From: Raja brachyura
Lineage: Eukaryota
DNA: 64,000 bases
NCBI GenBank assembly: GCA_963514005.1
Contig: OY740782.1
Location: forward strand, 151,032,001-151,096,000
Direction of reading: 5' to 3'
Shown here: piece after piece, positions 56,389 to 63,285 of the stretch
How the letters are laid out: every line of letters begins with the position of its first letter
How positions within the stretch are numbered: position 1 is the first letter of the stretch
Made by a program: the position numbers and the translations under genes
Notes under the pieces: generated by a model
Databases searched by the model: none
Told to the model about the DNA's origin: nothing
Seen by the model: the letters and a program-made list of their open reading frames with translations, nothing else

Positions 56389-56734
56389 CTGCAAGGCAAA
56401 GGACACATGAATGTTAAACTCTCTCTCTTGCTCGTTTTGCAAAATATTCAGTGCGAGGAATCATTATACAGCAATTCGTTACGCAGTTTTCTATTTCATG
56501 CAACTTCACCTGAGTATCATAAACTATTAGTTAATCATTCTGTCTTGATCCCACCTTGGAAAACATTGGCTGAAAACTTCTTGGGGTGCCAATATCCGGC
56601 AGTTACTGTCAAATGTACGCACAATTTCGAGTTGGAAATATATTGATAGGCCTCCAGTATTAATTACTGTAACATTCCCAGGGTTTCTCAGGAATGGTCA
56701 ATGCTCAGTGGCTATAACTAACATTGGCGTATGG

Positions 56735-57218
56735 GTTACAATCTCACCAAACTCCTTGTTGCGACTGGGGTTGATGGAGCAAGGGCGGAACTACGGGATA
56801 CAGTGTAGACACGTGTGAGAGCCTCATCTATGGTAAAAGTGGGGAATACCCGCTCTCCAAAGAATGAGGACCTCGGATATCCTGGTATGGAACAACTCAT
56901 CTTGGGAGCAGTTGCGCGGAGACGGATGAATTTGGGAGTAGGACATAGAGTCTTTGCAGGAGGCACGGTTGGAAGAGATGTAGTCCTGATAGCTGTGGGA
57001 GTCCGTAGATTTGTAATTTATATCAGTCGGTAGTCTATCTCCTGCGATGGAGACGGTGAGATCAACAAAGGGGAGGTATGTGTCGGGGATGGACCCGGTG
57101 AATTTGATCGTATGGTCAAAGTTTGTAGATAATGAGGTCAATGAGTTCTACATGGGTACAGGACGAAGAGTTCGGGGATAGGGCCAGTCTGTGTCAGGGT
57201 TGTCCCATGTACCCAACT
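56735..57218 (-). mobile_element. Penelope RT fragment in the J-C intron
   Basis: IKFT...LPFVDL...YKSTDSHSY.DY.S....CKDS..YSQ. Confidence 0.85.
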
Positions 57219-57393
57219 AAATGGAAATTGGTGAAATGATGTGCAATGTTGGAAACAAAATTTTCTCTGCTATTTGAATTACAGAACAGGTATACCACTA
57301 ATCCATGAACAGAGTGGGAATTGAAATCAATGGTTCAAAGGAGGGTTTGACTGACGTTCACAATTACATTTGCATTTATTTATTTAATTAAAA
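57219..57393 (+). repeat. Left arm of inverted duplication in J-C intron (octamer ATTTGCAT 57368-57375)
   Basis: Reverse complement aligns with 58329-58645. Confidence 0.85.
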
Positions 57394-58328
57394 TTAAATA
57401 ATTTAGGTAGGTTTCGCTTGGGCCATTGAGAGTGCCCGTGGCTAAACTTTTGATTTGGAGGAAGAGGGAAGAGTTTTTGTTTTATAAATGGTTCAGAGAT
57501 TATCCGATAAAATCACAGAAAATGGAAGGATAAAGGGTTTTCCATGTCGGGCTCCCGAACATAATTTGGGAGAAGACAAAATAAACAATCACAATCTTGT
57601 TAGTGAAATTTGCCCTTAAATGTGTCCATCGAACGAAACCAACTAAGGCGGTGGATGGGATTGAAATGGTAGCTCTGTTATTTAACCACAAATAACACAC
57701 TTAAAATGTCACTTTTTAACTGTATTTTGTTGCCCCATAACTCACGAAAATATACCGATCATTTATATGCCGACAGTAATTGCAAGTAAATTCCGAAAAG
57801 CAAACCAGCCGACAAGAACATTACATTCATACCAGATTAAACCCATGTATGAGATTGCATTGGTAAGGATTACAAAGAACTGTCTCAATATAACATCGGA
57901 ATTAATAAAGGTTATGTACCACAACTTCTGGAAACTAAATGTAACATTTAAATTGTAAGAATATGTTAATACTCCGTAATTAAATAAATTGGCACAGGTT
58001 TTAAATGTTTGTCTGTGTGCACCATTGCCTTAATGAATTCAATATAATCAATTAAAATTAATGTTTATGCAATGACGCTCAGTTCAGTTTCCAGCATCTT
58101 TAAAACGAGTTTACGTATACAATGTCATCGGCACTGAAGAACGAATGATTAACATTGTATCACTGTCCGATAGGAAACGAATAAAAAGATACCAATTATA
58201 AATTACAACCTGCAATCTATAAAAAATATCCGAGTTTGCTTCGTGACTTCAACAGGAAAGGGCATTAATTCATATAGAGGAACTTCTACTTTTAATGGTG
58301 AAAATTCCCAAATTTTGCTAAATCAATG

Positions 58329-58645
58329 TTTTAATTAAATAAATGCAAATGTAAATTTGAACGTCACTCAAACCCTCCTTTAAGTCATCGAGTTCAATTC
58401 CCACTCTGTTCAAGGATTAATAGGATACCCTGTTTTATAATTAAAATTAAGATAGCGGAGTCAGGGGATATGGGGAGAAGGGAGGAACAGGGTACTGATT
58501 GGGGATGATCAGCCATGATCACATTGAATGTCGGTGCTGGCTCGAAGGGCCGAATGGCCTCCTCCTGCACCTATTGTCTATTGTCCAAAATAGCAGAGAA
58601 CATTTTGTTTCCAACATTCCATTTCCTAATTTTTCATCATTTTTT
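58329..58645 (-). repeat. Right arm of inverted duplication (octamer ATGCAAAT 58343-58350), interrupted by a CR1 3' end at ~58448-58586
   Basis: Alignment to left arm resumes after the CR1 tail; AAAAT on both sides of the insert. Confidence 0.85.
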
Positions 58646-59768: not shown

Positions 59769-60334
59769 GGACTTAGCTTTGCTGTATCATTGGTTCACAT
59801 GGCCAACTCATTGTACTTCAATATAGATTAAAAAAAAGGTTGCAGTAACTCAGCGGGACAGGCAGAGTTACTCCAGCTTTTTGTGTCAATCGCCAGCATA
59901 AATCAGCATCCACAGTTCCTTCCAATTCATTCTACTTCAAGATATATAACTGCGCAATTAACCCTGACGCTGAGCCTTGCATTTCTGTGTTTTGCGGCAA
60001 GAACATTTTACTTCTTCCATGCAAGTTTTGTTAGCGATTGGATTAAAGGTGGCAAGGTGATTCCACCAATTAATACATACACTTTAAAAACTTGAAAATG
60101 TTACACCCATGATTTATCCGTTTCTGTCGTTTGTGTCATATGCGCTGATAAGAAACAAACTGAGACAAAGTACCTGCTGTTGATCAGAAAATACAGTTCG
60201 ATGCATCACAGACCAAGGACCACAACAATCTCAAACAATTAGAAAGCAGTGAAAGCAAATTGATGCACATTTTCCCACTAATTTGGAACTAAACCGCATC
60301 CGTTTCATAGTCAAAGGATCGAACGTCATAGCAC

Positions 60335-60981: not shown

Positions 60982-61029
60982 CGCTGGTTACCGTCACCAT
61001 GGTGCCTCCTCCCCAGTAGTCAAGATAGT
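60982..61029 (-). CDS. IGHJ: JH segment YLDYWGGGTMVTVTS
   Basis: WGxG motif, phase-1 GTAAG donor at 60977-60981. Confidence 0.96.
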
Positions 61030-61068
61030 CACGGTGTTACATTCTATGGATCTCTTCACACAACAACA
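61030..61068 (+). other. JH RSS, 23-bp spacer
   Basis: CACGGTG (61030-61036), 23 nt, ACAACAACA (61060-61068). Confidence 0.85.
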
Positions 61069-61424: not shown

Positions 61425-61432
61425 CCAGTATA
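61425..61432 (-). CDS. IGHD: D2 diversity segment TATACTGG
   Basis: 8 nt flanked by two 12-spacer RSSs, as in the shark/skate V23-12D1(22)-12D2(12)-23J layout. Confidence 0.9.
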
Positions 61433-61741: not shown

Positions 61742-61755
61742 ACCCACTGTTGTAT
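61742..61755 (-). CDS. IGHD: D1 diversity segment ATACAACAGTGGGT
   Basis: 14 nt between two outward-facing RSSs; resembles elasmobranch IgM D1 cores. Confidence 0.93.
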
Positions 61756-62131: not shown

Positions 62132-62170
62132 CGTTCTTGTACGGGTCTGACACTGAATCCTCACACTGTG
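62132..62170 (-). other. VH 3' recombination signal, 23-bp spacer
   Basis: CACAGTG (62164-62170), 23 nt (62141-62163), ACAAGAACG (62132-62140). Confidence 0.93.
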
Positions 62171-62471
62171 TTTCTCGCACAGTAATAGACAGCGGTGTCT
62201 TCGATCCTCAGGTTCCTGGCGATCACGGTGAACATATTCGAACTGTCTTTGGACGGAGTAAATCGGCTCTTTATCCCCGGAGCATAGTACTCGCTACCAG
62301 AACTGTAGTAGGTAAGCAGCCACTCCAGCCCCTGCCCGGGGACCTGACGGACCAAAGCCATAGAGTAGCTGCTAAGAGTGAACCCGCTGGTTTGACAGGT
62401 CAGTGTGATGGAGCCTCCAGGAACGGCGGTCCCTGTCTTGGGCTGAGTTAGAACGACATCGGAATGGACAC
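62171..62471 (-). CDS. IGHV: Germline VH segment: [96 protein letters not shown]
   Basis: TTGCAG acceptor; both conserved Cys, GQGLEW and DTAVYYCAR motifs; no stops; followed directly by an RSS. Confidence 0.97.
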
Positions 62472-62646: not shown

Positions 62647-62692
62647 GGACTATTAGCGCCAGGAACAGACTCAGTGAAACCGCCGACCTCAT
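62647..62692 (-). CDS. IGHV: IgM heavy chain leader exon (MRSAVSLSLFLALIV+1 nt)
   Basis: ATG at 62692, 15 hydrophobic codons plus 1 nt, then GTGAGT donor (62641-62646); phase 1 joins in frame to the V exon (R-V-H-S|DVVLTQ). Confidence 0.93.
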
Positions 62693-62694
62693 CC

Positions 62695-62855
62695 CGCTGG
62701 GAAGTGTGACCCGGTTTGTTTCTGTACAGAACCTCGCAACAAACCAACTGCAAGGAAGTTGGACTTCGGACCATCTTAGAGAGGATTAAATACCCGGCAA
62801 AAGAGGGTGCGGCTTTGGGCGGGACTTGTAAACCGAGAGGTGCAGCGGGCGGAGC
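62695..62855 (-). promoter_or_regulatory. Putative VH proximal promoter
   Basis: TATA-like TATTTAAT at 62785-62792 about 95 nt upstream of ATG, GGGCGG boxes near 62817 and 62847, ETS-like GGAAGT near 62700 and 62753; no ATGCAAAT octamer seen between the ATG and the gap at 63119. Confidence 0.5.
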
Positions 62856-63285
62856 TGAGACACGGCTCCCAACTCAACAGCAAGATGGACTCACGCTTTC
62901 ACATCTATTAACTGATACAGATGCACAAGAGGTTAATAAAACAGCGTGCTTTTCCGCCCCTTACACAATATAAACTCATGGTATAGTTGTAAATAAGATG
63001 GTGGAAAGATAGTGCAGGTTTTTCTTAAAATAACTTCGGAATTCCTCAAATTTATATTAAAATGCATCTGGGTGTGCGTGTGCTTGCGTGTGTGAGAGGG
63101 AGAGAGAGGAGAGGTGAGNNNNNNNNNNNNNNNNNNNNNNNNNNNNNNNNNNNNNNNNNNNNNNNNNNNNNNNNNNNNNNNNNNNNNNNNNNNNNNNNNN
63201 NNNNNNNNNNNNNNNNNNNNNNNNNNNNNNNNNNNNNNNNNNNNNNNNNNNNNNNNNNNNNNNNNNNNNNNNNNNNNNNNNNNNN

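Follow-up and report, generated by a model that had tools for sequence, protein, structure and literature searches.

The mammalian E-mu enhancer carries a single octamer that lies outside its core, according to the passages of PMC1800861 that deal with it, and the same source, in its catfish sections, describes the octamer variant ATGTAAAT as functional in the catfish E-mu3' enhancer. Shark immunoglobulin heavy-chain (IgH) promoters have been reported to be without an octamer in the part of PMC2435157 that treats them, and an excerpt of PMC13043367 describes orthologues of OCA-B as present in cartilaginous fish. Germline inverted templated insertions with 2-12 bp of microhomology are known in humans from portions of PMC8421209, where the template search was confined to within 100 bp. 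The literature that we searched, from outside the main shark IgH papers, contained no description of an intronic IgH enhancer in a shark or skate, or of the repeat that is the subject of this report. This repeat consists of two inverted, octamer-bearing arms in an IgM J-C intron; a preliminary description had put it forward as a candidate duplicated intronic B-cell enhancer, with the terminal inverted repeats of an old DNA transposon as the alternative.

RESULTS

An inverted repeat between JH and Cmu1

At its end, the 64,000-nucleotide stretch of DNA that we analyzed (the window) carries a minus-strand immunoglobulin heavy-chain cluster, with the VH leader near 62692. From its V-D-D-J-C layout and tail sequence, we take this to be an IgM cluster and its bearer to be a cartilaginous fish, most probably a skate. 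The segments that frame the J-Cmu intron are as follows:

62171..62471, minus strand: VH exon; open frame, V-set match (E 3.5e-14), 23-bp RSS at 62170
61742..61755, minus strand: D1 segment; RSS on each side
61425..61432, minus strand: D2 segment; RSS on each side
60982..61029, minus strand: JH segment
56092..56388, minus strand: Cmu1 exon; Ig C1-set match (E 6.5e-12)

More C exons, the secretory tail, and the transmembrane exon lie at lower coordinates than Cmu1, the last of these within an open frame at about 49125-49394 of the window. The JH RSS (61030-61068) has a non-canonical heptamer, CACGGTG, and the nonamer of the VH RSS (62132-62170) has two mismatches; in clusters L042 and L043, a deletion shortens the VH RSS spacer. 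Elsewhere in the window are presumably L1-like fragments (about 45400-47150). A (GAGTTT)n-like satellite of 5.7 kb, extremely skewed in G/C (34248-39975), lies downstream of the IgM cluster. Two related 86-bp stretches (1127-1212 and 33916-34003) each carry two inverted RSS-like heptamers 24-26 bp apart, with no RSS nonamer at either heptamer stretch.

The site of the arms is the J-Cmu intron of this IgM cluster, which is about 4.4-4.6 kb long and includes the following parts:

56700..57221 (start approximate), minus strand: retroelement remnant to the left of the insertion; dispersed family
57222..57404, no strand assigned: left (Cmu-proximal) arm; very probably a derived inverted 183-bp copy of the right arm, within the retroelement remnant
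57405..57475, minus strand: retroelement remnant to the right of the insertion; same element continued
57476..58317, no strand assigned: spacer; unique, found in IgM clusters only, collinear wherever kept
58318..58452, no strand assigned: core of the right (JH-proximal) arm; probable template, flanked by unique IgM-intron sequence
58453..58587, plus strand: 3' tail of a presumed CR1-type LINE; in the C2/C4/C5/C17 lineage and not in C3, C30, or C15a
58588..58640, no strand assigned: outer part of the right arm, separated from the core by the CR1 tail

With the CR1 tail omitted, the left arm matches the reverse complement of the right at 150 of 178 positions (84%), and arms and flanks together are identical at 167 of 203. 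A blastn comparison of one arm core with the other gave an E value of about 2e-32, which places the repeat far beyond chance. These values bear out the preliminary description, which had two inverted arms of about 170 bp, roughly 80-85% identical. It had set them about 940 bp apart; the inverted arrangement holds, and the distance is refined to about 910 bp between the inner ends, the arm limits being 57219-57406 and about 58318-58640 when shared junction bases are included. The splitting of the second arm by a CR1 tail was also seen correctly, as 58453-58587 matches a family with eight copies in the window, its CR1 class being presumptive. Since the tail is missing from the right arms of the C3, C30, and C15a clusters, it was inserted after the duplication.

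At its AT-rich end (window 57376-57404; paralogues L031-L038), the left arm is composed of a slippage-prone unit of about 20 bp. The stretch ranges from 23 to 103 bp among nine C2 clusters and from 23 to 24 bp in the others measured, and each unit carries a MEF2-like pattern.

The arms are confined to IgM J-C introns

Genome-wide searches with the arms returned matches within IgM J-C introns only and revealed no dispersed family. For the left arm there were 46 matches (50 candidates, 40 scored), all 46 of them in IgM J-C introns, and the same was true of all 40 scored matches among the 48 candidates for the right core. A search with Cmu1 identified 27 places, and a 28th cluster, on C17, has no Cmu1 match. 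When these 28 clusters were mapped, each arm match fell between JH and Cmu1 or in the corresponding intron remnant. Left arms were present in 25 of the 28 clusters and right cores in 24, and the resulting total of 49 arm cores accounts for the candidate numbers; partial arms occur in clusters C24, C9, and C3far. The spacer and the JH-side flank likewise matched IgM clusters only, apart from nine 45-bp retroelement hits, in a DNA search that passes over very common words and so does not strictly prove absence elsewhere. The pattern CRE-N10-octamer had 31 matches across the genome, compared to 22 for a control pattern; 23 of the 31 are IgM arms and eight are elsewhere, so that the pattern is not enriched at other loci.

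Six IgW clusters, located through a VH search, gave no arm match by blastn or with an arm-core profile (best E 5.8), and no consensus octamer was present in their J-C introns (6.7-12.5 kb). These IgW-type clusters (L071-L087; one each on C283, C9, C8, and C15 and two on C10) have long C-exon arrays; C10a, C9, and C8 have an extra C-type exon beyond the secretory-tail exon, and the number of duplicated exons varies. In contigs from three other species, depth over the arms was about that over the spacer, and the CR1 tail exceeded both by orders of magnitude, depth being a rough guide. One contig of another species contains both arms in opposite orientation, indicating that the pair is common to related species.

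Some clusters are joined in the germline. V-D joints are found in L032, L036, and L044, and VDJ joints, several of them out of frame, in L039, L040, L041, L045, L048, L052, L054, L055, and L057/L058. Most of the germline-joined clusters are found close to contig ends, at a distance from the C2 and C3 arrays.

The left arm very probably arose as a templated inverted copy

The element that surrounds the left arm was first spotted through the nine 45-bp hits. We tentatively take it to be Penelope-like on the basis of RT and GIY-YIG motifs; a Pfam search of seven fragments of the dispersed copies gave no significant hit (one at E 0.13 was disregarded). In four of six dispersed copies (L067-L070), the sequences that flank the left arm are directly contiguous. 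The other two consist of L066, which retains only the last ~14 bases there, and L065, which has other sequence; a seventh copy, L117, is contiguous at lower identity. Because uninterrupted copies of the retroelement exist elsewhere, 57222-57404 is an insertion in an older element, and because the left arm lies inside the retroelement and the right arm is flanked by unique intron sequence, the left arm is the copy and the right arm the template.

The ends of the insertion coincide with the ends of its similarity to the right arm. Three bases are shared at one junction (57219-57221) and two at the other (57405-57406); being short, AT-rich, and old, they are weak proof of mechanism. No target-site duplication was found at the junctions of the left-arm insertion. 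In a tree of the arms, the right arms formed one clade against the left arms (92% bootstrap) on a short branch, which points to a single event shortly before the clusters diverged.

The C3far cluster served as a control. It holds an independent 180-bp copy of plain retroelement sequence (L112, C3, about 1501-1680; window equivalent 57032-57211), which lies about 1.1 kb from its source, in the same orientation, in an (AT)n tract of the Cmu1-Cmu2 intron. This copy is 95% identical to the source in its own cluster and at most 90% identical to the other clusters. As a second copy, made of motif-free sequence, it demonstrates that templated events of this kind occur here without any motif.

We conclude that the pair very probably arose once, by inverted templated duplication. 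A broken end in the remnant may have primed by microhomology on intron sequence about 0.9-1.1 kb away, whereupon a polymerase would have copied 183 bases of the opposite strand and returned to the remnant. Template switching during germline DNA repair would thus be the likely writer of the left arm, and the copy would then have been carried along as the IgM cluster duplicated, likely without a function of its own.

Motifs in the arms

The preliminary description had placed an octamer, TGACGT, and TGGGAA in both arms, and all of them are present:

57368..57375, minus strand: consensus octamer, left arm; intact in 23 of 25 left arms
58343..58350, plus strand: consensus octamer, right arm; intact in 20 of 24 right arms
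58349-58356: variant octamer ATGTAAAT, overlapping the right octamer; C2-type lineage only
57352..57357, plus strand: CRE half-site TGACGT, left arm; 17 of 25 left arms
58361..58366, minus strand: CRE half-site TGACGT, right arm; 14 of 24 right arms
57315..57320, plus strand: TGGGAA, left arm; 12 of 25 left arms
58398..58403, minus strand: TGGGAA, right arm; 10 of 24 right arms

Since one arm was copied from the other, the twin motifs amount to one event and not to independent sightings. The octamers of the two arms are 970 bp apart, 5' of Cmu1. The sole consensus octamer of the ancestral intron sits within the copied stretch, and the octamer is doubled because it happened to be there. In simulated sequence of the same composition, the chance of at least one consensus octamer was 35% per 4.4-kb intron and 3.7% per arm-sized stretch. 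The VH promoter, described earlier as being without an octamer, has none with one mismatch or fewer in 62693-63118 (426 readable bases; 63119-63285 is N).

With consensus patterns, we found no match to CAGGTG/CAGCTG, muE3, kB, Runx, or EBF in the arms. The nearest CAGGTG (56507) and the nearest CAGCTG (58797) are both beyond them. One match to GGAAnnGAAA, of Ets or Ets-IRF type, is present at 57317 in the left arm and is missing from the C3 and C30 lineages.

The arms change at the rate of their surroundings

We estimated rates of change on a tree of the clusters (length 0.85). Changes per unit tree length were 0.80 for the left arm, 0.85 for the right core, and 0.80 for the retroelement remnant (101, 63, and 298 changes, respectively). 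With CpG sites left out, the rates were 0.70, 0.75, and 0.59, so that the arms were the faster. The ratio of left arm to remnant was 1.0, with a range of about 0.8-1.25 calculated from the change counts and ignoring overdispersion, making a module-wide slowing by one third unlikely. The JH-side intron changed at 0.9-1.2, somewhat above the arms; the remnant and the arms therefore share a slower region, and nothing sets the arms apart. When C2 was compared with C3 among the 13 unjoined clusters, the arms had identities of 0.911 and 0.891, the remnant 0.912, and the spacer 0.890.

The best-kept motif is the octamer, intact in 43 of 49 arms, compared to 31 for the CRE half-site and 22 for TGGGAA. 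The latter two change at or above the background rate (1.2-2.7), and both are absent from both arms of all six unjoined C3 clusters. Three substitutions were counted in the octamer pair against about seven expected, a count that misses one C47 change and a 1-base insertion in two C2 right arms. A level of three substitutions or fewer was reached by 11-12% of random 8-mer pairs from the intron (P ~0.11-0.12), which is not significant in a test whose power is low at 8 bp, given a tree length of 0.85 and the many branches that belong to pseudogenes. The idea that motif positions would be more conserved than neighboring bases thus found little in its favor: the arms keep pace with the remnant, the octamer is conserved weakly and non-significantly, and neither the CRE half-site nor TGGGAA is conserved.

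Unjoined clusters have not lost the octamer through point changes any less often (4 of 26 arms) than the remaining clusters (2 of 23), and the intron of one unjoined cluster, C2d, is without a consensus octamer. Both arms persist in each of the 13 unjoined clusters, always with one or more octamers of consensus or ATGTAAAT form, and 5 of the 15 joined or broken clusters have lost one or both arm cores; since the 13 stem from two expansions, their retention of the arms counts as about two observations. Among the differences listed for four other species there was no octamer substitution, compared to 13 variable places in 57323-57361 (39 contigs, with thin cover at the octamer end).

A scan of 56500-58450 placed the slowest window at 57622-57664 (permutation P 0.12). 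A 17-bp run at 60061-60077 is without change in the clusters that keep it. These two stretches are alternative places in which to seek a regulatory site.

DISCUSSION

On comparative sequence evidence, the left arm is probably a neutral, inverted, repair-type copy of the right arm with no function of its own. A pair of inverted arms, each about 185 bp long, on either side of a spacer of about 910 bp could also be what an old DNA transposon leaves as its terminal inverted repeats, or be copies of some small dispersed element, but such an origin is hardly credible here. The retroelement outside the supposed element runs on at the start of its interior, which rules out terminal inverted repeats. 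In a DNA search that passes over very common words, arm, spacer, and flank have no match beyond the IgM clusters other than the 45-bp retroelement hits, and contig depth in three other species, rough guide though it is, resembled that of unique spacer over the arms and was far under that of the CR1 tail. The preliminary description's alternative is contradicted both by this absence of dispersed copies and by the empty site, at which the left arm's own two flanks join, not the outer flanks of the pair. Another proposal is that the arms act by pairing: a long hairpin, formed in the pre-mRNA or in transcribed DNA that is single-stranded, would influence splicing, editing, hypermutation, or switching between clusters. 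A structural role has been proposed for the inverted repeat around the hs1.2 enhancer in the mammalian 3' regulatory region (3'RR), in the part of PMC9936319 concerned with it, and our arms could pair over a long stretch (-142 kcal/mol with the core by itself), but such an energy is expected of any inverted repeat with this identity. Three substitutions within eight columns are common to both arms and lineage-specific, more than expected without conversion (P 0.005-0.022, simulation); set against these three sites that group by cluster are seven that group by arm and two that follow neither, and one of the three arose again independently in C3f-h. This gives a hint of occasional gene conversion between the arms, which would explain the presence of TGGGAA in both arms of this cluster; it is only a hint, since one of the shared sites recurs and they cannot all be placed on a single branch. 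Left-right identity has fallen to 84-89% in most clusters, matching the age of the pair, a CR1 tail is tolerated within the stem, and the spacer is inverted in no cluster, all of which makes a pairing function very unlikely.

A more serious competitor to the neutral copy, although still an unlikely one, sees the right arm as all or part of an intronic B-cell enhancer that depends on Oct factors and was doubled by the templated copy. The origin would be the same, and the pair would have been kept by raising IgM transcription or accessibility where VH promoters are without an octamer. Like mammalian E-mu, the site lies between JH and Cmu1, and the VH promoter of this cluster does lack an octamer. 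The octamer's persistence in 43 of 49 arms and the presence of both arms in every unjoined cluster are consistent with such a role, as are the large intron deletions of unjoined clusters, which fall in the JH-side half and spare the arms. Three C2 right arms without the consensus octamer still carry ATGTAAAT, and an arm-sized stretch would hold an octamer by chance in only about 4% of cases. Against this stand the lack of module-wide constraint, the non-significant constraint on the octamer relative to other intron 8-mers (P ~0.11-0.12), and rates for the CRE half-site and TGGGAA at or above background. The arms have no match to CAGGTG/CAGCTG, muE3, kB, Runx, or EBF by consensus patterns, the unjoined cluster C2d has no consensus octamer in its intron, and the six IgW J-C introns show neither arm similarity nor a consensus octamer. 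That the enhancer keeps any weight is due to the difficulty of testing an 8-bp site on short branches. What stands of the duplicated intronic B-cell enhancer first proposed is a duplicated, IgM-specific, non-dispersed J-C module; the motif conservation named in its support largely fails. Its most far-reaching form, which we regard as rather improbable, would make the right arm an octamer-centered intronic IgM enhancer of cartilaginous fish that compensates for octamer-less VH promoters. One repair-born inverted copy would have doubled it in the ancestor of all present IgM clusters of the lineage, and the doubling may have helped this ancestral cluster to supplant older ones.

Read as a neutral scar, the left arm marks lineage cleanly: one or both arm cores are present in 26 of the 28 IgM clusters, and these 26 have a common intron history since an event that can be dated. 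Templated insertions of about 180 bp arose in the germline at least twice in these introns. If, on the other hand, the octamer is functional, the module would offer a small, testable IgH enhancer candidate in cartilaginous fish and would be relevant to how a B cell activates one of its many IgH clusters.

Comparison with known systems

Microhomology-mediated templated insertion (MMB-TI), as described in portions of PMC8421209, resembles the left arm in being an inverted nearby copy with short shared junction bases that became fixed in the germline. The present copy differs in its length of 183 bp, in the distance of about 0.9-1.1 kb to its template, in its ancient age, and in its multiplication by Ig cluster duplication. 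The terminal inverted repeats of MITEs and DNA transposons are alike in that inverted arms flank a spacer; here, the arms are not dispersed, have no target-site duplication, and enclose the continuation of the host retroelement. The palindrome of the mammalian IgH 3' regulatory region is also an inverted duplication in an IgH locus, but, going by the part of PMC9936319 that deals with it, it flanks hs1.2 3' of the locus and is kept across mammals, whereas the arms described here are 185 bp long, intronic, and decaying at the background rate.

As far as its sequence features were tested, the module is outside the E-mu and E-mu3' families. It shares with mammalian E-mu a site in the JH-Cmu intron, a consensus octamer, and AT-rich surroundings; in contrast to E-mu, it has no muE2, muE5, or muE3 boxes and no conserved Ets site, it is an inverted pair, and its conservation is not above background. 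Catfish E-mu3', in the sections of PMC1800861 that describe it, is similar in having two octamer sites, and ATGTAAAT recurs in the right arm of one lineage here. That enhancer, however, lies 3' of the mu gene and has a core with muE5, whereas the arms of the present repeat lie 5' of Cmu1 and are without muE5.
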